Positions 20,625 to 42,523 of a DNA stretch of 64,000 bases are shown one piece after another. Source of the stretch: Candidatus Nealsonbacteria bacterium (lineage in GTDB: Bacteria > Patescibacteriota > Minisyncoccia > Minisyncoccales > JANBVM01). The translations under genes were made by a program, and so were the position numbers. Under the pieces are notes generated by a model, which was not told the origin of the DNA, did not search any database, and worked only from the letters and a program-made list of their open reading frames with translations. The stretch covers positions 175,159 through 239,158 of the forward strand of contig CP179887.1 of the NCBI GenBank assembly GCA_047456295.1, in the 5' to 3' direction. The first letter of the stretch is position 1. Each line of letters begins with the position of its first letter.

Positions 20625-20738
20625 CTCTAATAATCTAAAGAAGGGATCAAAAGGAGAAAAGAAATAAATAGATTAACATTGTGCGACATTTATTAGGTGA
20701 TAAAGAACCGTTAGGGTAGGGAACTAATGGTTTTTTTA
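20625..20738 (+). repeat. repeat unit U1 (box A, core ATTGTGCGACATTT at 20678-20691, conserved terminator hairpin at 20706-20738); left inverted repeat of the recombinase module
   Basis: The reverse complement of 20671-20737 matches 22779-22845 at 57 of 66 aligned positions by hand alignment. Similarity continues outward (GGAGAAAAG / GGAGAGAAAG, GATC). Confidence 0.8.
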
Positions 20739-20767
20739 TTCTTCAAGGTTTTTGTTACAATGAAAAT

Positions 20768-21616
20768 ATGAGTAAAGTTAAATTCCATCCTTATACCGAA
20801 GAATTTAAAAAAAATTTTGAAAAAGAGAGAGAAAGAATTAAAAAAGTTTTGCCTGAAGATGAAGTACACCATATTGGAAGCACGGCTATTCCCAGAGTAG
20901 GTGGGAAGGGAATTATAGATATTTTAGTTGCCCTGCAGGACTGGGAAAAAAGGGAAGGAGCAATTGAAAAATTAAAAAATTTGGGATTCACTCATATTCA
21001 CCCAGAAGAAAACGGAAGAGTCTTTCTAAGTAAAATAGGGGAGACAAAATATAGAGACACTCATATTCATCTTGTAGAAAAGGGCAATGAAGATTATATT
21101 GAAAAATTACTTTTCCGAGATTTTCTTAGAAGAAATAAAAAAGAGGCTGAAAAGTACCATAAATTAAAACACGAATGGGAGAGGGAAGCAAAAGGGGATA
21201 GGGATAGATATGGAAAATTAAAAAAATCCTATATCGAAAATATTATAAGACGAGCCAAAGAGAAGAGGGAAGTCTTTTTAAAAAAGTACTTAAGTTATTT
21301 AGGACAAAAGGTAAAAGCTATTATAGACAGGCCTTTAGGCAGTAAACATCCTGATTTTAACATTGTTTATTCTGTAAATTATGGATTTTTACCAAAAACA
21401 GAGGCTTTTGACGGAGATGAAATTGATGTTTATGTTTTAGGAGTTGAAAAACCAATAACAAGTTTTGAAGGAGAAGTAATTGCAGTTATTCATAGGTTTG
21501 ACGATAATGAAGACAAACTGGTCGTAGCTCCAGAAGGCAAAGAATTTACTGATCAGGAAATTAGAGATTTAACAGATTTTCAAGAAAAGTATTTTAACTC
21601 GGAAATAATTAAGTAG
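20768..21616 (+). CDS. GrpB-family protein fused to a short inorganic-diphosphatase-like domain
   Basis: The N-terminal half has HHIGSTAIPRVGGKGIIDILV (GrpB/UPF0157). The C-terminal ~110 aa has IDRPLGSKHP...VNYGFLPKTEAFDGDEIDVYVLG...DNEDKLVVAP (family I PPase-like core). Confidence 0.7.
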   Translation: MSKVKFHPYTEEFKKNFEKERERIKKVLPEDEVHHIGSTAIPRVGGKGIIDILVALQDWEKREGAIEKLKNLGFTHIHPEENGRVFLSKIGETKYRDTHIHLVEKGNEDYIEKLLFRDFLRRNKKEAEKYHKLKHEWEREAKGDRDRYGKLKKSYIENIIRRAKEKREVFLKKYLSYLGQKVKAIIDRPLGSKHPDFNIVYSVNYGFLPKTEAFDGDEIDVYVLGVEKPITSFEGEVIAVIHRFDDNEDKLVVAPEGKEFTDQEIRDLTDFQEKYFNSEIIK

Positions 21617-21658
21617 TTAATAGTGAGAATAATACATACATATTAGCTAGGGAAGTAC

Positions 21659-21686
21659 TTGACACCGTCCTTTGGGACGGTACAAT
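21659..21686 (+). promoter_or_regulatory. near-consensus sigma70-type promoter facing the recombinase gene
   Basis: TTGACA (21659-21664), 16-nt spacer CCGTCCTTTGGGACGG (itself a hairpin), TACAAT (21681-21686). Confidence 0.6.
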
Positions 21687-21701
21687 ATAGATAGAGAAAG
21701 A

Positions 21702-21727
21702 GTCGCACAATGTAGGTTAAGCGACAT
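21702..21727 (+). repeat. core copy S2 inside the recombinase leader (GTCGCACAATGT...GCGACAT)
   Basis: GTCGCACAATGT is identical to 12 nt of the U1 core on the opposite strand. It is followed 9 nt later by the inverted half GCGACAT. Confidence 0.65.
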
Positions 21728-21822
21728 ATAATATATATGGCAAAAGGGTTCCATTAGAACCCCTCCCCCGGATGCTCAATTTTTGCTCTCAGGGGAGAGG
21801 TAGAAAATATAAGAAATTTATT

Positions 21823-22779
21823 ATGAAAAAATCAAACACACCAATTATAAAACATATCCCCGACTTTTTAGATTATTGTGAAGTAGAAAAAGGATTATCT
21901 GATAAAACCCAGGAAAACTACCAGCGCTACCTCCAGAAGTTTGTCTCCTGGCTAAAAAGGGCAAAAAAAGAAGATTTAAAGCCCCATCAGCTCACTACAG
22001 ATGATATTTGGGGTTATCGGCTCTATTTATCAAGATTTAAGCATTATAAGGGTAAACCCCTGAAGAAGATAACCCAGAACTACTATTTAATCGCCCTGAG
22101 AGCCCTTCTAGGCTATTTTACAGCCAAAGATATAGTTTCATTGCCTGCTGATAAAATAAAGCTCCCAAAAGACGCTAAAAAGGCAAAAACAGTCAAATTC
22201 CTCAATTTAGAGCAAGTTGAGAAGCTTTTACTAGCTCCTGGCACCAAAAGCCCTATTGGTTTAAGAAATAAGGCTATTTTGGAAGCACTTTTCTCAACTG
22301 GTTTGAGAATAGCTGAATTAGTGGCTCTTAATAAAGAACAATTTGCCAACATAGAAAACAAAAAAGGATTGGAGCTCAGTGTTATTGGTAAAGGAGGTCA
22401 TCCCCGAACAGTCTATTTTTCAGAAAGAGCTTTATCTTGGCTCAAAAAATATTTGGAAACAAGAAAAGACAAAGAAAAAGCCCTATTTATCAACTATAGA
22501 TCTAAAAAGGGCGCAGACGCCCGCTTAACGTCTCGTTCTATAGAAAGAATCGTTAAAAAATATGCAATCTTAGCCGGTATTCCTATATTTACCACTCCCC
22601 ATACCCTTCGTCACAGTATGGCGACTGATCTTTTAACTCAAGGTGTTGATTTAAGAACCATCCAAGAATTTTTGGGCCACAAAAACATCGTCACAACCCA
22701 AATATATACTCACGTAACAAGCAAGCGCCTTCGAGACATTCACCGCAAATTTCACAGCGGGAAGAACCTAAAAGAATAA
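21823..22779 (+). CDS. tyrosine site-specific recombinase (XerC/XerD-like integrase family)
   Basis: N-terminal SAM-like domain (DFLDYCEVEKGLSDKTQENYQRYL). Catalytic contexts GLRIAEL (Arg), HTLRHS (His-x-x-Arg), LGH and IYTHV (Tyr). The ORF opens at 21772, but MKKSNTPII at 21823 is the more plausible start. Confidence 0.9.
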   Translation: MKKSNTPIIKHIPDFLDYCEVEKGLSDKTQENYQRYLQKFVSWLKRAKKEDLKPHQLTTDDIWGYRLYLSRFKHYKGKPLKKITQNYYLIALRALLGYFTAKDIVSLPADKIKLPKDAKKAKTVKFLNLEQVEKLLLAPGTKSPIGLRNKAILEALFSTGLRIAELVALNKEQFANIENKKGLELSVIGKGGHPRTVYFSERALSWLKKYLETRKDKEKALFINYRSKKGADARLTSRSIERIVKKYAILAGIPIFTTPHTLRHSMATDLLTQGVDLRTIQEFLGHKNIVTTQIYTHVTSKRLRDIHRKFHSGKNLKE

Positions 22780-22783
22780 AAAA

Positions 22784-22880
22784 ACCGTTAGTTGCCTACC
22801 CTGACGGTTTTTTCTCATTTACTAAATGTCGCACAATATTAATCTTCAAACTTTCTCTCCATTCCGATCTTTATTTATTC
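22784..22880 (-). repeat. repeat unit U2 (hairpin 22784-22810, core AAATGTCGCACAAT at 22824-22837, box A 22861-22880); right inverted repeat
   Basis: See U1. On the minus strand it sits between the stop of the 233-aa gene and the hairpin. Confidence 0.8.
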
Positions 22881-22892
22881 TAAAATATATCT

Positions 22893-23594
22893 TTAACCAA
22901 TAAAATTTATCAGCAACTTATCTAAACTCTCTGGTACAGCATCGCCTGAACAAACACATGGTATTTCAACCAATCCAACATTTGTTCTCTCGGTCTTAAT
23001 TTTTATTCTTTGTGAATCGTAAATTCTAGCTCTAATTAGCGGTTTGTTTCTATAAAGACCATTATGATTTGCATGCCTTGCAGTCGGACCCTGCTGTGCC
23101 AAATCGAAGTTTCCTTTGTCAACGATCTCAATCTCTGATGGAAAAAATATTCTGAAAGTAGGATTATTTGCGCTTATTACACCCTTATTATGTAACCAGA
23201 ATTCAATTTGGCATTCTTCACCTGCCCGCAAGTCAATTTGATTTTGGTTTTTTACAAAAGTTACATATAAATTAGGAGTTTGATTTTGTCTAACAACAAC
23301 GTCTTCTGAAATAATCTTTAAGCTTCTTGCGACAGAATCCAGAGTAATACTTGTTGATTTTAACTCTTCTATTTGTTTCCGTGATACTTCAATCGTCTCT
23401 CTAGTCGAAATATCCATCTTTCTGAAAGTCTGCAATGCTATAGCTAACATAGCACATACTCCCAGCAATCCAAGAAGCAAATTTACGACAGTTATATTCT
23501 TTATCTTAAAATAAAAAATAAATATAAGAATAAGAAGAATAATAACTGTAAGCCAAAGTAGATGAAGCATAATATTTTTCTTTAGTTTATCCAT
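22893..23594 (-). CDS. hypothetical 2-TM membrane protein with a soluble C-terminal domain
   Basis: 233 aa with two N-terminal hydrophobic helices. It lies 17 nt downstream of the GIY-YIG gene. Confidence 0.6.
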   Translation of the reverse strand: MDKLKKNIMLHLLWLTVIILLILIFIFYFKIKNITVVNLLLGLLGVCAMLAIALQTFRKMDISTRETIEVSRKQIEELKSTSITLDSVARSLKIISEDVVVRQNQTPNLYVTFVKNQNQIDLRAGEECQIEFWLHNKGVISANNPTFRIFFPSEIEIVDKGNFDLAQQGPTARHANHNGLYRNKPLIRARIYDSQRIKIKTERTNVGLVEIPCVCSGDAVPESLDKLLINFIG

Positions 23595-23611
23595 AGATGA
23601 TAATTAATATC

Positions 23612-23905
23612 TTAGTAGACATTATGGGGAGGATTGTATCTGGTTCTCCAAAAGCTCTCTAAAGCTTTAGCGTCGTCTTCCGTTCTAGTTTCATACCAAT
23701 CAAAAAAAATAACCCCAGGTATATCTTTGGATTTAAAATGTTCAAGAATCCTTTCCTTTAGTCGCCCGACACCGGCCTTGCCAACATATAAAATACCTCC
23801 GATCCTAGTGTTACTTCTTAGTGTGTATACACCACACGTATCAGGCACACTATCTATATTTTCTCTTTCCCATTGCAAAATGCCAGATTTCTTGATAAAT
23901 GTCAT
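23612..23905 (-). CDS. minimal GIY-YIG nuclease-domain protein
   Basis: 97 aa: GVYTL...ILYVGKAG...RLKERI...DAKALE...RYNP. Paralog of 60886..61158. Confidence 0.7.
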   Translation of the reverse strand: MTFIKKSGILQWERENIDSVPDTCGVYTLRSNTRIGGILYVGKAGVGRLKERILEHFKSKDIPGVIFFDWYETRTEDDAKALESFWRTRYNPPHNVY

Positions 23906-23996
23906 GTAATTAGTTTATAATTATTTGTTTAAATTTCTCAATTAATTCCTCAACCTTTTTATATGTTTTGTATTTAAATATCGTAGAATATACCTT

Positions 23997-24053
23997 CTGC
24001 GACATTTAAGTTCGAGCCTTGTCTTCCCGCGCATCGTGGACGATGTTCGAACC
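23997..24053 (+). repeat. repeat unit U3 (core TGCGACATTTA plus GC-rich hairpin)
   Basis: The 11-mer TGCGACATTTA is identical to U1. It is followed by the nested hairpin GTTCGAG...CATCG-TGGA-CGATG...TTCGAAC. Confidence 0.55.
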
Positions 24054-24067
24054 TATTTAGTTAAGGG

Positions 24068-24541
24068 TTAAGTTTTCTTTTTTATTTCTTCAGCTAACTT
24101 TTTGAGCTCGGCAATATCAATTTTTGGTCCTAATTGAGTAGAAATATATCCCTGGTATTTATTAAAAAATACTTTCTCCTTCCCCCACATCTCTCTAAAT
24201 TTCTCAGTTATACCGTGTAAAGGATAAAGTTTAATATGAGCATGGTTTATTCCCATTCCTTCCATAACCATTGCAACTCTTTTTACATCCAAACCTTTTT
24301 CTAAGATTTTTACAACTTTTTTAGTGGTTTTCATGAATCTTTGGTAGACATCTTCTTCCATATCAAAAACATAAGAATCATAATGTTTCTTTGTTAAAAG
24401 TAAAGTCATTCCTTTTGTATTAGGATTAACATCTAAGATTGCAAGAAATTCTTTGTCTTCCCAAATTTTAGCTGAATCAATTTCTCCTTTTATAATTTTA
24501 CAAAATATACACTGTTCCATTTCTATTTCAGTTTCTTTCAC
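24068..24541 (-). CDS. HIT-family nucleotide hydrolase/transferase
   Basis: CIFCKIIKGEI...LDVNP...GINHAHIKLYP (histidine-triad variant). Confidence 0.8.
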   Translation of the reverse strand: MKETEIEMEQCIFCKIIKGEIDSAKIWEDKEFLAILDVNPNTKGMTLLLTKKHYDSYVFDMEEDVYQRFMKTTKKVVKILEKGLDVKRVAMVMEGMGINHAHIKLYPLHGITEKFREMWGKEKVFFNKYQGYISTQLGPKIDIAELKKLAEEIKKKT

Positions 24542-24544
24542 AGT

Positions 24545-25048
24545 TTATTTTGAGATTTTAATTAATTGTGAAAATTTCTTTTTTCGAATCTTCTTATCCA
24601 TTTTTAACACATACTCCCAGGCTTCTTTCCACTTATAAATAGGAGCCTTGGGGTGATTCATCTCTCTATTTACCATTTCTTCTGTAAATTCATTACCATA
24701 TAACTGTTCCCAAACATCATATAAAATCAAATTAATTTGTTTGTGTTGCTCAAAAGAATCATTATGGTGTATATTGTTTCCATAAAGTAATCGATGACAC
24801 AATTCGTGCACTAAAAGTCCTTTTCTATATTTCTCAGGAAAATAAGCATTTAATGAAAGAGGGTGTGAACGACTTATTCTTTCGTAGATAATGGCATTTA
24901 TGCTTTTCTCATTAAACTCTAAACCACTAATTTCTTGCATAACATTCGTTATTCTTTTTCCCTCTCTATCCCATAATGCCTGCCATTTTTCTGTTTCTAA
25001 AATTAATTCTTTTTTATCCCAGCCAGGGCGAAATTTTATTTTTAACAT
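24545..25048 (-). CDS. hypothetical protein with an HExxH motif (possible zinc metallohydrolase)
   Basis: 167 aa with LLVHELCHRLLYG. It lies 3 nt upstream of the HIT gene. Confidence 0.5.
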   Translation of the reverse strand: MLKIKFRPGWDKKELILETEKWQALWDREGKRITNVMQEISGLEFNEKSINAIIYERISRSHPLSLNAYFPEKYRKGLLVHELCHRLLYGNNIHHNDSFEQHKQINLILYDVWEQLYGNEFTEEMVNREMNHPKAPIYKWKEAWEYVLKMDKKIRKKKFSQLIKISK

Positions 25049-25405
25049 ATTACTTCATTATACTAAAAAAGAGTTGGGAGCTCAAAGCAACTGTTTTTAT
25101 TTAAATAAATTCTATGAAATCACACAAAATACCTTGTGAGACTAAAATGGTGAGATTCTCTAAGAAGAATAAATCCGCCTAACAGTAAGCTTGGTTTTTT
25201 ACTGCAAATCATCCCCCACCCGAGATGTCTTGGGATATAAATTGGGTGTCTTTATTTTATATCTCTACTAGTTGAACTGTACTAAAGTCTGATTAGTTAA
25301 GACTCTGGAATAAAAAATGGACGTTTAATTTACTAAAACGTCCTCTATAGAATTTCTTTAATTCTTAAAGAAATATTTTCTTCTATTTTTTTTAAAAAGT
25401 TTTCA

Positions 25406-25678
25406 TTACACATTAAACGCTTTTCTAAAATCCGTATATATTTCTGTGTAACCACATTTCTTACAAGCTATAATGCTTACTGGGTATTTAGGCACTATAC
25501 ATACTGGATTGTTTGGTTCTTCTGGATATTTTTTCACCCAGCTTCTGAAATCTCCCATGCCATAAAATAAACCCTTCATCGTTTCTCCATCACAACGAAA
25601 ACATTTCTTTGGAGGAGGAAACGTTTCAAACTCTAAATCTTTCTTTGCAATCTGTTTTCTTTCTTCCAAATTATTCAC
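25406..25678 (-). CDS. hypothetical zinc-ribbon protein
   Basis: 90 aa with CFRCDGE...CKKCGYTE. Hairpin plus T-run terminator at about 25316-25350 on the minus strand. Confidence 0.5.
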   Translation of the reverse strand: MNNLEERKQIAKKDLEFETFPPPKKCFRCDGETMKGLFYGMGDFRSWVKKYPEEPNNPVCIVPKYPVSIIACKKCGYTEIYTDFRKAFNV

Positions 25679-26097
25679 CTCAAATTTATACTGCTTAGAG
25701 TATAAACCCGAGTTTAAAAATTGTCAATTTATTGTACTGGTTCACATGCATCTGAACCTAAGCAGTCAAAAAGTAAAATGACTATCCCCTGAAATGAAAA
25801 GGAAGGTTTTTTCAGGAACAAAGAGTCCCATTTCGGTGACTAGTGATAACTATAACCAAAAAAAACAAAAAGTAATTAAAGTCTAAATAATAATTATTAC
25901 CTCTTACATTTTTGTAGAGATTAAGTTCAATTTAATAGTATGATATTCTTTGCAATCCTAACCGTACCTTCATTTCAATATAAAATAGATATCATTGTTG
26001 TGGTACAAAATTTAATAATAGGTTGAATAAAGGCAATATTGACAAAATTTAAAATACTATTAGGGTTACTAATAGAACTATTAAAATAAAATATGAG

Positions 26098-27189
26098 GTG
26101 GTTAAAATTCAGAACAATCAGAAGAAAGAGAAACCTTCCTATAGAAAACATAGTGAACATTTCATACTACAATGGCACATTACGGCAAAATGCCCAAACC
26201 AATGTTTACACTGTTATCTGCGTGATCCTGAGACATATAATTCAGAAATTAATAAGGAATTAAAGTTTAATGACTGTATAAAAATAATCGATGATTTTTC
26301 GGAAACGGTAAAAAGGTGGGATATAATTGGAAGAATTAACTTCACTGGAGGAGATCCTCTTCTAAGACCAGATGTATTTGATCTTATAAGTTATGCAAGG
26401 AGAAAAGATCTAACAGTAGGAATTCTAGGAAATCCAGAGTGCATAGATTTCGAGACTGCAAAAAAACTAAAGGATTTAGGAGTTTTACGTTACCAAGTGA
26501 GTATCTGTGGAATGAAAGAAACCCATGATAGAATAGTTTCTCCAGGAAGTTTTGAACGAACCTTAAGCGCAATAGACATTCTTAACGAGGTAGGACTTCC
26601 ACCTGTGGTTATGTTTACGGTAAGTAAACAAAATGCGGATGAATTACTGGAAGTGATAGATTTAGTTGTTCAGAAAAAAGTATTTTTATTTGGATTTACT
26701 AGACTAGTACCTATTGGCTCAGGGAAACAGCTTCTGGATGATTTGTTAACTCCAGATGAACACAGAAAACTTTTACTAAAAGTTTTTAAGAAGTATAAGC
26801 AATTAGAAGAAGATAATTGTATGACTTCTTTCGGTAAGAGGGATTCTTTGTGGGCATTAATTTATCGTGAGAAAGGATTTTTTAAAACTGTCGAAAACGA
26901 CAATAAAACAATATATGGAGGTTGTGCTGTCGGAATCTCTAGTCTCGCCGTATTAGCAGATGGAACTGTTTATCCCTGCAGACGTTTACCAATCAAAATA
27001 GGAGAGATACCCAAAGAAAAAATAAGAGACATTTTTGTAAAATCTGTTAAGCTAAACGAGTTGAGGAACGTCAATAATATGGAAAAATGTAGCAAATGTG
27101 AATTATTACAATATTGTAGAGGGTGTCCAGCAATCGCTTATGCAGTTCACGGTAACTTTTTCTCTCCAGACCCACAATGCTGGAAGTAA
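26098..27189 (+). CDS. radical SAM / SPASM-domain peptide-modifying enzyme
   Basis: CPNQCLHCY (CX3CX2C) near the N-terminus. C-terminal auxiliary-cluster cysteines GGCAVG...YPCRR...CSKCELLQYCRGCPA...PQCW. Confidence 0.85.
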   Translation: MVKIQNNQKKEKPSYRKHSEHFILQWHITAKCPNQCLHCYLRDPETYNSEINKELKFNDCIKIIDDFSETVKRWDIIGRINFTGGDPLLRPDVFDLISYARRKDLTVGILGNPECIDFETAKKLKDLGVLRYQVSICGMKETHDRIVSPGSFERTLSAIDILNEVGLPPVVMFTVSKQNADELLEVIDLVVQKKVFLFGFTRLVPIGSGKQLLDDLLTPDEHRKLLLKVFKKYKQLEEDNCMTSFGKRDSLWALIYREKGFFKTVENDNKTIYGGCAVGISSLAVLADGTVYPCRRLPIKIGEIPKEKIRDIFVKSVKLNELRNVNNMEKCSKCELLQYCRGCPAIAYAVHGNFFSPDPQCWK

Positions 27190-27220
27190 ACTGGACTTAA
27201 TCCTAATTAATCACAAGTAC

Positions 27221-27248
27221 TTGACAAAAACCTTTGGTAAGATAAAAT
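27221..27248 (+). promoter_or_regulatory. candidate promoter of the small Cys-rich peptide gene
   Basis: TTGACA (27221-27226), 16 nt, TAAAAT (27243-27248). Hairpin AAATAGCT...AGCTATTT follows at about 27252-27280. Confidence 0.4.
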
Positions 27249-27321
27249 AAAAATAGCTGATAACAATATTTAGCTATTTAAAATTATAATAATTAATAAT
27301 TACGAAAGGAGGTTATCAAGA

Positions 27322-27438
27322 ATGAGCGATAGAGATTTTTTTGCTGAAAGATATTATTTTTGGAAAAAGACAAAAGATAGGCATGTTGAGATTGCATGTA
27401 GCGATATTTACTGTGATAATTGTACAGGTTGTGATTAA
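27322..27438 (+). CDS. 38-aa Cys-rich peptide, candidate RiPP precursor (not in ORF track)
   Basis: AAAGGAGG lies 9 nt upstream of the ATG. Translation: MSDRDFFAERYYFWKKTKDRHVEIACSDIYCDNCTGCD. It starts 132 nt after the rSAM/SPASM stop and has its own terminator. Confidence 0.6.
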   Translation: MSDRDFFAERYYFWKKTKDRHVEIACSDIYCDNCTGCD

Positions 27439-27451
27439 AAAAAATCAAAGT

Positions 27452-27490
27452 CCTATTAAAGTATTTTTTATTCTTAATAGGCTTTTTTTT
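27452..27490 (+). terminator. rho-independent terminator after the peptide gene
   Basis: CCTATTAA...TTAATAGG stem followed by CTTTTTTTT. Confidence 0.65.
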
Positions 27491-27534
27491 ATATTTTTAA
27501 TAAATAAAAAAATGCCCAATAAAAGGCATTTCAT

Positions 27535-28152
27535 TTAATTAATTCTTTTTGCGATCACTAGTGCTATCGCATGTCTATGAACGGGTCCCTTTCCATGTTT
27601 TTGGGGGCTGGTAAAGAATTCCTTATAGTGAATAATTTGCCAATTTTTATAAAACTTCTTTAGTTGGTTTTTCTTGAATAAATAAGGGAAATTTTTTTTG
27701 GGATTATCCTCAGTAAAAACAGATATAAGGTTAAAGCCAGAAACTTCAGTATGTTTTTTAATTTTCTTAATTATTCTTTTAACCTCTCTTTCTTTTAGAA
27801 AGTGCAGAAGTGAAAGTGCTAAGACTATATCATACTTTTCTTGGAAATTAAATCGATTAACGTTACTTAAAATAGCTTTAATCTTAAGATTCTCTTTCTC
27901 ATTTAAACTTCTAAGTTTCCGTATTGCTTTTTCGGAAAAGTCCACTCCGGTGACGTTGAATCCACGTTTAGCAAAACAAATAGCATTCCTTCCTTCTCCA
28001 ACACCTAGATCTAAAACTTTTCCAGGACCTTTTTTATTTTTTAAAAATTCTTCGACTATCTTTTCTGCTTTTATTCCCCAAAAGCAATCTTCTACTTTAT
28101 ATAATTCGTTAAAATATTCCTTCCTAAATTTCTGATTCACTGATAGTACCAC
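27535..28152 (-). CDS. class I SAM-dependent methyltransferase (TehB-like)
   Basis: VLDLGVGEGRNAICFAKRGFNVTGVDFS motif I / post-I. GTG start. Confidence 0.8.
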   Translation of the reverse strand: MVLSVNQKFRKEYFNELYKVEDCFWGIKAEKIVEEFLKNKKGPGKVLDLGVGEGRNAICFAKRGFNVTGVDFSEKAIRKLRSLNEKENLKIKAILSNVNRFNFQEKYDIVLALSLLHFLKEREVKRIIKKIKKHTEVSGFNLISVFTEDNPKKNFPYLFKKNQLKKFYKNWQIIHYKEFFTSPQKHGKGPVHRHAIALVIAKRIN

Positions 28153-28455
28153 CTATTGATTATTATTAAGAACTGTTATAACTGTACAATCAAAATACCA
28201 TTCCGTCAAGAATATGGTCAGGATCTACCCCTTCTCCGAGAGAGCTCCTAGATTATAAATGCTAAATGTTTGTGTCTAAAACAAGAACACTATAAAAAAG
28301 TACAAGAGCACTTAATTAAGTATTGTAATTTGATTTATTTGTTGTTGTTTAATTTTCATTTACTTTTAAATAAATTAAAGATATTGTCATAGTCAAAATT
28401 CCTAAAAAAAATACCGTGTTTTTGATTTTGATATAACACGGTTTTTTATAGTTTT

Positions 28456-28887
28456 TTAACTATTTTTTTTGTGAAAATAAACAAGTCTATCTCTAATCTT
28501 TTGTAAGTAACAGAACTCAGAAGGCAAACGTAGTTTAAAAATCACGTTCATCATCTCTGGATATGATGAATTGATGCTAGAAATAGTGAAAAGTTCGTCT
28601 ATCTCTTTATCTATAAGTTGGATTGCGAGCTTATAATCATTTCTTCTTAATTCTAGTCTTGCTTTCTCGTACGTGGTTATTCTTTCTTTTAATGAAATTA
28701 ACTCTTTATTTATCTTTCTTGACTGAACTTTTGACAACAACTTCGAAATAATCAATTTTAGCCAAAAAGAAGAGGATGACTCCATTAAGAATAATTCTAT
28801 CTCTCTTTTCTTTCTTTCGTTTGATAAAACTTCTCTTTGTAACAAGGTTTGTTCTTTTTTAAAATAGCTCGTTACTTCTTCAATCAA
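28456..28887 (-). CDS. hypothetical coiled-coil protein
   Basis: 143-aa ORF with a terminator hairpin ACCGTGTT...AACACGGT downstream (about 28411-28447). No recognisable motif. Confidence 0.45.
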   Translation of the reverse strand: MIEEVTSYFKKEQTLLQREVLSNERKKREIELFLMESSSSFWLKLIISKLLSKVQSRKINKELISLKERITTYEKARLELRRNDYKLAIQLIDKEIDELFTISSINSSYPEMMNVIFKLRLPSEFCYLQKIRDRLVYFHKKNS

Positions 28888-29156
28888 ATCATTACTAATC
28901 TTTCCTCACCCCTATTTAAGATTTTTATAAAAATTATACAATAGTCTATTGCTTTTTAGAATAAGAAAAGAAAAAAGTCAATAGCGAGTGGTAATCTGAC
29001 AGTATAGCACTATGTTAAATATAACTCACAATATAGATAAATTTAATTGTTCAAACTAAAGAAAAATGATTAAGATTACATTTGAAGAAAGGTTTAAGTA
29101 TATATAAGATATCAAGACTATAGGGTTTCTCAAAATTTAAAATTAGCCGTTTTTCA

Positions 29157-29185
29157 CCGTTTTAAAACGGGAGATGTCGCACAAC
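29157..29185 (-). repeat. repeat unit U4 (core GTTGTGCGACATC plus palindrome CCGTTTTAAAACGG)
   Basis: The plus strand reads CCGTTTTAAAACGGGAGATGTCGCACAAC. The 11-mer TTGTGCGACAT is shared with U1. Confidence 0.55.
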
Positions 29186-29436
29186 ATAGATTATCTGACA
29201 TCTACACACATTATTTGCCTGACAGCATCCAATATGGATTGACTTATTTAGAACAGTATGCTATTATTCTAGTCAGATTATAAGTCGAGCATTTAAACAA
29301 TCTTTCTAAATAAAGATCGGAAAATAGAACGGCTTAGTAATCAAAAGGTCGCTTTTTAATTTAAAATTCTAACTAAGCGTTCAAATAAGTTTTGAGTTTC
29401 AGAACTTAAAACTTAGATTTACGATCTTAATTTAGT

Positions 29437-29625
29437 ATGTTTAATGACTTCAGAGATCGTCCAAGGAGAGATTTTTCTCCCCGAAAGATGTACCAGGGAA
29501 ATTGGAAATGTGCTGATTGCGGAAAAGAGATAACCGAACTTCCATTTGAGCCTTCAGCAGACAGACCAATTTACTGCAGGGAGTGTCATGCCAAACGAAG
29601 ACCTCCTCAAAGATCCAGGTACTAG
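29437..29625 (+). CDS. CxxC-x17/18-CxxC zinc-ribbon protein
   Basis: 62 aa with WKCADCGKEITELPFEPSADRPIYCRECHAKRR. Long leader upstream. Confidence 0.7.
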   Translation: MFNDFRDRPRRDFSPRKMYQGNWKCADCGKEITELPFEPSADRPIYCRECHAKRRPPQRSRY

Positions 29626-29640
29626 ATCAGAATAATAAAG

Positions 29641-29666
29641 CCCCGCAAGAATTTTGCGGGGTTTTT
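29641..29666 (+). terminator. rho-independent terminator
   Basis: CCCCGCAA-GAATT-TTGCGGGG followed by TTTTT. Confidence 0.8.
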
Positions 29667-29788
29667 AGTTACATTGATTCCTTGAAATCCTAAAATTCGT
29701 TTTAATTTAAAACACGGCAATTGTCAGAATTCAGGAAATTCCATAAAAGTTTAGATAAACTTAAAGTTTAAAATACCTATTGGTAATT

Positions 29789-30574
29789 TTAATTATGGAG
29801 TTCTATTCCTCGTACCCTTATATCTTCTGAGGAAATGATGTTTTTGCATTCTTTAATAAACTCTAAAAACTTCTTTCTATCTCTCAAAATATTATAACTC
29901 TGGGGAAATCTATCCCTTAGTACATCCATAAATTCTTTCCCGGCTCCTCTTGTATTAATCATTTCAAACCAATAATAATCAGCGAATTTTTTAGTTTTTT
30001 TAATTATCTCTCTCAAATTTATCAAGCCTGGAATTATCGGACTAATAAAGGCATAAGTGGATATTCCTTTATCTTTAAGGGTTTTTAAGACTTCTATCCT
30101 TCTTTTATTTGAGGGTGAAAACGGTTCAAAAATATGTTTTGAGCTATTACTGAAGCTATTTATGGTTAAACCAACTTCAATATTCTTAAATTTTTTGAAA
30201 AGCCCTAAGTCTCGCAGAATCAAATCTGACTTTGTTTGAATGGAAAGTTTTATTCTTTTATCCAAATTTTCTAATATTTGCCGGGTTATTTTTAGTCTTT
30301 TCTCAATATGCTGATAAGGATCAGAGATAGAACTCATATAAACCCAATCATCAACATATCTTCCTTTTACTAGTTCTGGGGCATTTATTTTTACTTCCAC
30401 CCAGGTTCCCCATTTTCCGTAATGACTTGGACGCCATTTAGATATAAATTTAGCATAACAATAAAGACAAGCATGCTGGCAACCAACATATTGATTAATT
30501 ACCCATTTTACTCCTGGAATTTTGCTTCTGGTAAAAATTGACTTAGCTTTAACCTTAATCACTCTAATTTTCAT
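29789..30574 (-). CDS. SPL/DNA-photolyase-like radical SAM protein
   Basis: VINQYVGCQHACLYCYA (CX3CX2C), 261 aa, SplB-like family pattern. Confidence 0.75.
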   Translation of the reverse strand: MKIRVIKVKAKSIFTRSKIPGVKWVINQYVGCQHACLYCYAKFISKWRPSHYGKWGTWVEVKINAPELVKGRYVDDWVYMSSISDPYQHIEKRLKITRQILENLDKRIKLSIQTKSDLILRDLGLFKKFKNIEVGLTINSFSNSSKHIFEPFSPSNKRRIEVLKTLKDKGISTYAFISPIIPGLINLREIIKKTKKFADYYWFEMINTRGAGKEFMDVLRDRFPQSYNILRDRKKFLEFIKECKNIISSEDIRVRGIELHN

Positions 30575-30586
30575 ATTTCCATATTA

Positions 30587-30648
30587 CCAAAATCCCCTAG
30601 CCAACAGGAATAGGGTGATTTTTTCCTCCTCGATAAATGTCGTACAAT
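30587..30648 (-). repeat. repeat unit U5 (core ATTGTACGACATTTAT plus hairpin)
   Basis: The minus strand reads ATTGTACGACATTTATCGAGGAGGAAAAAATCACCCTATTCCTGTTGGCTAGGGGATTTT. The core matches U1 at 16 of 17 positions. Confidence 0.65.
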
Positions 30649-42439: not shown

Positions 42440-42523
42440 CCTAATAATATTCTTTTTATCAAATTTTAAATTAAAAGTCTATTCTGGTTTGTCAATATGA
42501 ACAGCTAGTTCTTACATAAAAAG

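Follow-up and report, generated by a model that had tools for sequence, protein, structure and literature searches.

We analysed a 64,000-nt window of contig CP179887.1 (GCA_047456295.1) from Candidatus Nealsonbacteria bacterium, whose genome (G000) is a single contig of 689,429 bp and 97% complete; unless stated otherwise, coordinates are positions within this window. The window carries a gene for a tyrosine recombinase, here called xer, and a 28-bp sequence at 21700-21727 lying between the promoter and the start codon of this gene. We found that this sequence is very probably, as judged from sequence and context, the chromosomal dif site of a single-recombinase Xer system, with the xer gene behind it encoding its recombinase. 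This reading was adopted because of the observed anatomy of the site, its place at the switch of the genomic GC skew, its linkage to xer, its conservation, the presence of one recombinase in the genome, and an FtsK with a gamma domain. An initial annotation of this DNA, made from its letters, had proposed an autoregulatory recombinase binding site just downstream of a promoter. That describes what the sequence is; its main role, that of a complete two-arm dif-type site at the terminus, was missed.

The site consists of two 11-bp arms around a 6-bp centre, the layout given for the dif sites of E. coli, B. subtilis and archaea (excerpts of PMC5357621). It lies within the usual limits for dif, namely approximately 28-31 bp with two imperfect inverted arms of about 11 bp and a centre of 6-11 bp. 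The arms share a GTCGC...GCGAC dyad symmetry, 7/11 positions agree after reverse-complementing one arm, and the outer ATGTCGC is common to both. The GUCGC/GCGAC pairing expected in RNA is therefore the dyad of the site itself, since dif arms are inverted repeats. When up to 5 mismatches were allowed, 21700-21727 was the only full site in the genome. The 12-mer core GTCGCACAATGT at 21702-21713 (+), which the initial annotation had reported to be 12/12 identical to flanking cores, was the left arm of the 28-bp site. The claimed identity held on the left flank (20676-20687, minus strand) and failed on the right, where the copy at 22828-22839 (+) matched at 11 of 12 positions. In the window, 8 matches to this 12-mer were counted at no more than 2 mismatches versus 1.24 expected, a number reached in 0/100 shuffles, and the exact 12-mer occurred at only two places in the whole genome (21702-21713 and 20676-20687).

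The position of dif sites tracks the GC-skew shift point (excerpts of PMC3025954). The genome-wide cumulative GC skew reached its maximum at 21742 in 100-bp bins and at 21748 at 1-bp resolution, the latter 21 nt past the end of the site, and its minimum at genome position 536,982. To the left of the site, genes were on the plus strand, and to its right they were mostly on the minus strand. Similarly, the local skew maximum lay 0.1-2.3 kb from the relative's own site in 5/5 relatives, for which 30-40 kb around xer had been fetched.

The xer gene was the sole match to PF00589 in the 689,429-bp genome, and its product also carried a SAM-like N-domain (Pfam). The top NCBIfam models for this protein were XerD, XerC and XerA. 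Its best solved relative was E. coli XerD (1a0p, 1.5e-40), while XerH (PDB 5jjv) was distant (E 4.7e-12). The motifs TGLR, GKG, HxLRH, GH and YTHV lined up with the active-site motifs of 1a0p, and we take them to be those of the catalytic Arg, Lys, His-x-x-Arg, His and Tyr. The start codon was placed at ATG 21823, as the proteins of all relatives align from its residue 1. A longer open reading frame (ORF) from ATG 21772 was rejected on the same alignment to the Met at 21823, and also because the leader of the closest relative (L003) lacks an ATG at the equivalent position. The genome also encodes an FtsK with the gamma domain, PF01580 (5.2e-61) and PF09397 (6.3e-29) being found in one 732-aa frame. 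After replication, FtsK would pump DNA towards the site at the terminus, and Xer, presumed to be active in recombination, would resolve chromosome dimers at 21700-21727 when bound to both arms.

Conservation was examined in two sets of loci that overlap in part. The first comprised 30 loci in genomes assigned to the same taxonomic order, and in these the site was sought up to 260 nt upstream of xer; one locus, L025, had no upstream DNA. The second consisted of 80 loci from named records (Candidatus Nealsonbacteria, Parcubacteria, Paceibacterota, Staskawiczbacteria and others), 79 of them with enough upstream DNA, and the site was sought up to 300 nt upstream of xer. The xer protein was present in 39/41 genomes searched, G000 included. 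The best 33 matches covered nearly the whole protein at 60-97% identity, and some genomes gave weaker matches only. A site with 11-bp arms and a 6-bp centre was found upstream of xer in 27/30 loci of the first set and in 71/79 usable loci of the second. It read ATGTCGCACAA-TGTAGG-T(T/A)AAGCGACAT in close relatives and GGTTCGCATAA-TTATAC-TTAAGAGAACT in distant ones, where the sites (TTCGCATAA...) resemble classical dif left arms. The usual gene order in relatives was gltX, a 138-aa ORF and then directly the promoter. On this comparison the promoter, site and xer are a conserved unit, in which the promoter travels with the site.

The promoter itself was present where the initial annotation had placed it ahead of the recombinase gene. 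Its -35 hexamer TTGACA (21659-21664) and -10 hexamer TACAAT (21681-21686) are separated by a 16-nt spacer, and matches of this 11-of-12 quality numbered 70 on both strands of the 689-kb genome, the xer promoter included. TTGAC was unchanged in 23/23 aligned relatives. Among the 53 loci of the second set with a pattern-detected promoter, the gap between the -10 hexamer and the site was 11 nt in 33 and 9-13 nt in 48; in the window it was 13 nt. The unit would thus read promoter, about 11-13 nt, 28-bp site, variable leader and xer. Because of this order the xer transcript is expected to begin only a few bases ahead of the site; its predicted start near 21693 places the beginning of the site at about +8. 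From the site to the ATG, the distance in the window is 95 nt.

This arrangement raises the question of regulation. A recombinase at about +8 would sit in the path of RNA polymerase, and autoregulation is therefore a reasonable idea. We tentatively suggest, at somewhat less than even chance, that Xer occupying about +8 to +35 represses transcription of its own gene, a proposal based on geometry. The conserved promoter-site spacing would speak for some coupling, and dif would be the first thing transcribed because it lies a fixed 9-13 nt behind the -10 hexamer. In a broader form, which we consider unlikely, dif would be a combined recombination site and operator that couples the level of Xer, or the access to dif, to its occupancy, and maybe also the anchor of a Xer-driven cassette platform at the terminus of these very small genomes. 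Exchangeable genes would there be flanked by one-arm sites joined to copies of the end of xer, and the extra arm hairpins in the leaders of some relatives would belong to the same picture. The features discussed here and below are listed in Table 1.

Table 1. Sequence features of the dif-xer region, with positions in the 64,000-nt window (a dot denotes a feature without strand).
Feature	Position	Strand	Remarks
G-rich motif TAGGGAAGT, variant of (T)AGGGGAG	21648-21656	+	directly upstream of -35
xer sigma-70-type promoter, TTGACA-16 nt-TACAAT	21659-21686	+	11-of-12 match; predicted start near 21693
Spacer hairpin ACCGTCC / loop TTTG / GGACGGT	21664-21681	.	perfect stem of at least 5 bp in relatives
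dif-type site GAGTCGCACAA / TGTAGG / TTAAGCGACAT	21700-21727	+	two 11-bp arms, 6-bp centre, 28 bp
Lineage-specific hairpin GGGTTC-CATTA-GAACCC	21746-21762	+	in minimum-free-energy fold; absent from consensus structure
C-rich tract CCCCTCCCCC; minus strand GGGGGAGGGG, contains GGGGAGGG	21760-21769	-	points towards site; strand-skew counts
Purine tract GGGGAGAGG	21792-21800	+	pairs with C-rich tract in minimum-free-energy fold
xer, tyrosine recombinase, 318 aa, XerD-like	21823-22779	+	Pfam Phage_integrase PF00589, 3.3e-40
84-nt inverted repeat, left arm	20670-20753	.	partner 22762-22845, 86% complementary
Left flanking core, inverted, left-arm-only ATGTCGCACAA + TGTTAA	20673-20689	-	no matching second arm
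Terminator-like hairpin after xer, A-run and T-run flanks	22785-22807	+	within right arm of 84-nt repeat
Right flanking core, left-arm-only ATGTCGCACAA + TATTAA	22826-22842	+	no matching second arm
Degenerate dif-like site, two 11-bp arms + 6-bp centre	23978-24005		near terminus
Degenerate dif-like site ATGTCGCACAA / CATAGA / TTATCTGACAT	29174-29201	+	6 mismatches to 28-mer of closest relative

Several observations weigh against the assignment of 21700-21727 as dif. By the patterns used, no site was recognised in 3/30 and 8/79 loci of the two sets, and L022 and L024 had none within 260 nt upstream of xer. The xer protein scored under the NCBIfam equivalog cut-offs for XerD (223.1 versus 329.6 bits), XerC (220.7 versus 335.15), XerA (197.4 versus 220) and XerS (112.8 versus 267). 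Moreover, the site is not alone, since further arm-like sites, some of which could be involved in other reactions, lie near the terminus (20679, 22826, 23978-24005, 29174-29201 and 30637).

Other explanations of the same sequences concern either the transcript or the flanking repeats. Within the promoter, a perfect stem of at least 5 bp was found in the spacer of 14/23 relatives, with stem sequences that differ (shuffles: mean 1.3, maximum 5), and the spacer hairpin may be the terminator of the upstream gene nested inside the xer promoter. On that account, TTGACA...TACAAT could be chiefly this upstream terminator and not the xer promoter; xer would then be transcribed from another place, such as the perfect TATAAT at 21727-21732, which overlaps the site at its end. 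We regard this as improbable. The compensatory changes of the hairpin in 14/23 relatives, with TTATTAT next in most of them, would suit a terminator; however, the -35 element does not vary among the aligned relatives as described above, the -10 hexamer is kept at promoter spacing, and in the window the hairpin is followed by ACAATATAG, without a T-run. The partner of the TATAAT at -35 distance is only 3-of-6, as read from the sequence, and the roles of terminator and promoter are not mutually exclusive. A second alternative is that the leader is a functional structured RNA, either a cis-regulator of xer translation, in which the purine tract is masked by the C-rich tract, or an RNA offering the site sequence to the recombinase. 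Its length of approximately 130 nt, from the predicted start near 21693 to ATG 21823, agrees with what had been annotated, and the pairings named there (GUCGC/GCGAC, GGGTTC-CATTA-GAACCC and CCCCTCCCC...GGGGAG) are all in the minimum-free-energy fold. The description of this leader as structured did not hold, in that its folding energy was no better than that of dinucleotide-preserving shuffles, with z -1.69 for 21693-21825 (15/200 shuffles as good) and z -1.08 for 21728-21825 (26/200). Mononucleotide shuffles inflated z (-4.3 for the leader of the window) and were discarded in favour of the dinucleotide shuffles. The leaders of relatives fold somewhat beyond such shuffles (mean z -1.31 for those of 40-130 nt, with z below -2 in 12/43), a hairpin of differing sequence follows the site, by eye, in some relatives only (L003, L008, L017 and L009), and 9/69 unique leaders of at least 25 nt hold an extra arm-like 9-mer, several inside long hairpins, which partly favours the earlier view. 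The best-folding leaders of relatives were those with hairpins of extra arm-like sequence and its complement; the leader of the window is without an extra arm-like 9-mer. Against an RNA role, the part of the leader after the site ranged over 2-173 nt in the first set and 5-252 nt in the second, and several relatives are almost without it (5, 4 and 2 nt between site and ATG in L015, L030 and L031). RNAalifold on the 8 longest comparable leaders found 8 pairs, all of them the dyad of the site itself and 0 compensatory, a null that is weak negative evidence because the MAFFT alignment of unlike leaders was poor. No Rfam match was found at 21500-21950, either at the gathering score or at E up to 1, and we know of no tyrosine recombinase that uses an RNA partner. 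Since the leader is neither conserved nor covarying, with a length of 2-252 nt over both sets and 0 compensatory pairs outside the site dyad, the suggestion that a leader RNA displays the site sequence was not supported and a functional RNA here is extremely improbable. We infer that the leader beyond the site has no conserved role.

The repeated cores around the dif-xer unit invite a third explanation. The 84-nt inverted repeat is made up of the final 18 nt of xer, a bidirectional terminator hairpin and, at its outer end, a one-arm site, and its arms bracket a GrpB-pyrophosphatase gene together with the promoter-dif-xer unit. The three cores could therefore be imagined as the working sites of an inversion or excision switch, the 84-nt repeats bounding a 2-kb invertible or mobile segment that carries the GrpB-pyrophosphatase gene, the promoter and the recombinase, with the internal site serving the switch and not dimer resolution. 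The complementarity of the repeat (86%) and its arm-like sites suit such a switch. The same inverted arrangement was seen in 6/27 relatives, in which upstream inverted copies of the unit lay at -316 to -1047, and one genome (G005, Xer 97% identical) has different genes between the upstream inverted copy and the promoter. Nevertheless, the flanking copies are one-armed, with no second arm that matches. The xer gene is the only recombinase of the genome and is conserved in sequence and in its place after gltX and the 138-aa ORF across the order, as described above, and the site coincides with the skew maximum here and lies near a local one in all five relatives. Inverting dif against the replichores would be harmful, which also counts against the switch. 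When the NCBIfam invertase models were run on the xer protein, the scores were 60 and 56.2 bits versus cut-offs of 221 and 222; with such low scores and one-arm flanking sites, neither the protein nor the flanking sites fitted a Fim-like or shufflon invertase. We consider the switch very unlikely, and the dif assignment is retained.

With 21700-21727 taken as dif, the clustered arm sites look like a record of insertions next to it. Genome-wide, 5/7 matches to the left arm at no more than 1 mismatch were within 20679-30647 of the window. A left-arm-only unit occurred 40-60 nt after the xer stop in 10/27 relatives. Between the 138-aa ORF and the promoter, the window has a 1.1-kb piece made of the inverted unit and the GrpB-pyrophosphatase fusion gene; G005 has other genes in this slot and several more arm sites within 12 kb. 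A block at 29174-29671, 86% identical to G005, starts exactly at the 29174 dif-like site, and 22843-29174 had no match in the 40-kb region of G005.

Several further observations concern these parts of the terminus. The slot of the GrpB-pyrophosphatase gene is empty or differently filled in relatives, and the 282-aa product of the gene in the window (20768-21616) joins a GrpB domain (1.2e-37) to a partial domain of inorganic pyrophosphatase (2.3e-10). The region 22843-29174 is possibly a variable island beside dif. A 97-aa ORF at 23612-23905 on the minus strand, in the variable zone right of xer, has weak similarity to GIY-YIG nucleases, under the Pfam cut-offs, and a 62-aa Cys-rich ORF at 29437-29625 lies within the block that matches G005. 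In G005 itself (contig C1, L034 and L035), a fragment resembling the xer N-terminus is found about 1 kb downstream of xer, near the intact gene, with 59% identity over residues 2-42 and one stop, another sign of past rearrangement at the terminus. Long hairpins between dif and the xer start, formed by an extra dif-arm-like sequence and its complement, were seen in L055, L049, L045, L080, L019, L071 and L108. In the leader of the window, the purine tract at 21792-21800 lies 22 nt ahead of the start codon, a distance too great for an ordinary ribosome-binding site, and is weakened in L003. The only RNA gene detected was a tRNA: Rfam gave a tRNA only over the whole window, and ARAGORN found tRNA-Lys at 42523 only.

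We further considered the G-rich and C-rich words on either side of the site. The motif at 21648-21656 is a candidate FtsK-orienting word, similar to the FtsK-orienting polar sequences (KOPS), or a promoter-upstream element. The closest relative has TAGGGGAGT before its -35. A G-rich word within 90 nt left of the site was on the top strand in 21/27 relatives and on the bottom strand in 2/27; in the 90 nt to the right, falling in the leader or the first part of the gene, it was on the bottom strand in 12/27 and on the top strand in 2/27. Among 7-mers with at least 50 copies in the genome, the most strand-skewed were TAGGGGA (63:9) and AGGGGAG (78:14). The KOPS word of E. coli is GGGNAGGG (excerpts of PMC2965235), and GGGGAGGG fits it; genome-wide leading:lagging strand counts were 15:1 for GGGGAGGG and 67:23 for GGGNAGGG. 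In the window, the candidate polar words converge on the site from 21648 (+) and 21760 (-). Based on these counts, (T)AGGGGAG and GGGGAGGG may serve as FtsK guide words in this lineage. We hold it possible, at rather less than an even chance, that two elements, the G-rich word ahead of the -35 and the leader's C-rich tract, are polar words at the level of DNA that converge on the site, and not RNA elements. Skew and transcription are hard to separate here because transcription and replication run in the same direction over 81% of coding bases. Where genes run against replication, AGGGGAG was still 12:6 in favour of the leading strand, whereas GAAGAAG followed the gene (9:33), both on small numbers, and 16/78 leading-strand copies of AGGGGAG precede a start codon. 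The co-orientation of coding bases and the small counts speak against guide words, as does a same-strand GGGGAG right of the site at 21792. The word GGGTAGGG in the loop of the hairpin of the repeat was also tried as a guide word and dropped, being unskewed (8:5), which is a further point against. If true, the guide-word reading would explain the C-rich 'stem' as a feature of the DNA.

The dif-xer unit was compared with known systems. In streptococci and lactococci, XerS/difSL combines one recombinase with a site beside its gene at the terminus and depends on FtsK (excerpts of PMC5357621, PMC2965235 and PMC2731167). The unit described here is alike in having one Xer, a site 95 nt before the ATG and on the skew maximum, and an FtsK with the gamma domain. 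It differs in that difSL is 31 bp with an 11-bp centre whereas the site here is 28 bp with a 6-bp centre, and the protein is not XerS because its score is far below the cut-off (112.8 versus 267 bits). The fixed promoter-site distance found here is not described for difSL in the excerpts of the same three sources. In Helicobacter and Campylobacter, XerH/difH is a single-recombinase system whose site is near the gene, a possible hallmark of single-recombinase systems (excerpts of PMC5357621). This is shared by the present unit, but XerH is a distant protein and the arms and centre of difH are different. By analogy, the module would work like XerS/difSL and XerH/difH, while by score it is not a member of those protein families.

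The anatomy of the site is closer to that of other groups. With E. coli XerCD/dif and B. subtilis CodV-RipX/dif it shares a length of 28 bp, two 11-bp arms, a 6-bp centre and its place at the GC-skew shift point. Unlike XerCD and CodV-RipX, which are two recombinases encoded away from dif, there is one recombinase here and it is encoded beside the site; and the outer ATGTCGC is present in both arms, unlike in the dif of E. coli and B. subtilis. Some species of archaea have a xerA/dif module (excerpts of PMC5357621). The present unit resembles XerA/dif in its single recombinase and its two 11-bp arms with a 6-bp centre, and the XerA model gave 197 bits versus a cut-off of 220. XerA works independently of FtsK, and its site often lies elsewhere than opposite the origin, in contrast to the FtsK gamma domain and the site on the skew maximum found here.

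Recombination sites that double as operators are known from the Tn3-family res/TnpR and mini-F ResD/rfsF systems. By analogy with these, the site here would overlap the start of the recombinase transcription unit, and its occupancy would set the level of the enzyme. TnpR and ResD differ in being plasmid or transposon resolvases, not acting on a chromosomal dif, and TnpR is a serine recombinase. Among the integrative mobile elements exploiting Xer recombination (IMEX), the attP of the TLC phage is an example that is homologous on the XerC side and the centre and divergent on the XerD side (excerpts of PMC5357621). Similarly, the flanking cores here keep one arm and the centre, not the other arm. 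Unlike IMEX, the flanking copies are mutually inverted and fused to a copy of the xer gene end and terminator.

A targeted literature search of a limited collection returned no report of dimer resolution in Patescibacteria. The analysis describes ordinary biology of a new lineage. It gives the position of the replication terminus and of the putative dimer-resolution site in an uncultured, Nealsonbacteria-like Patescibacteria genome, and for the annotation of this region it explains the repeated cores without a new RNA or mobile element. The fixed distance from promoter to site deserves a second look, as do the promoter-spacer hairpin and the one-arm repeats. Together, these results extend the single-recombinase module with its site beside the gene across this order, and the fixed promoter-site spacing provides a simple case of a dif that may also control its recombinase.

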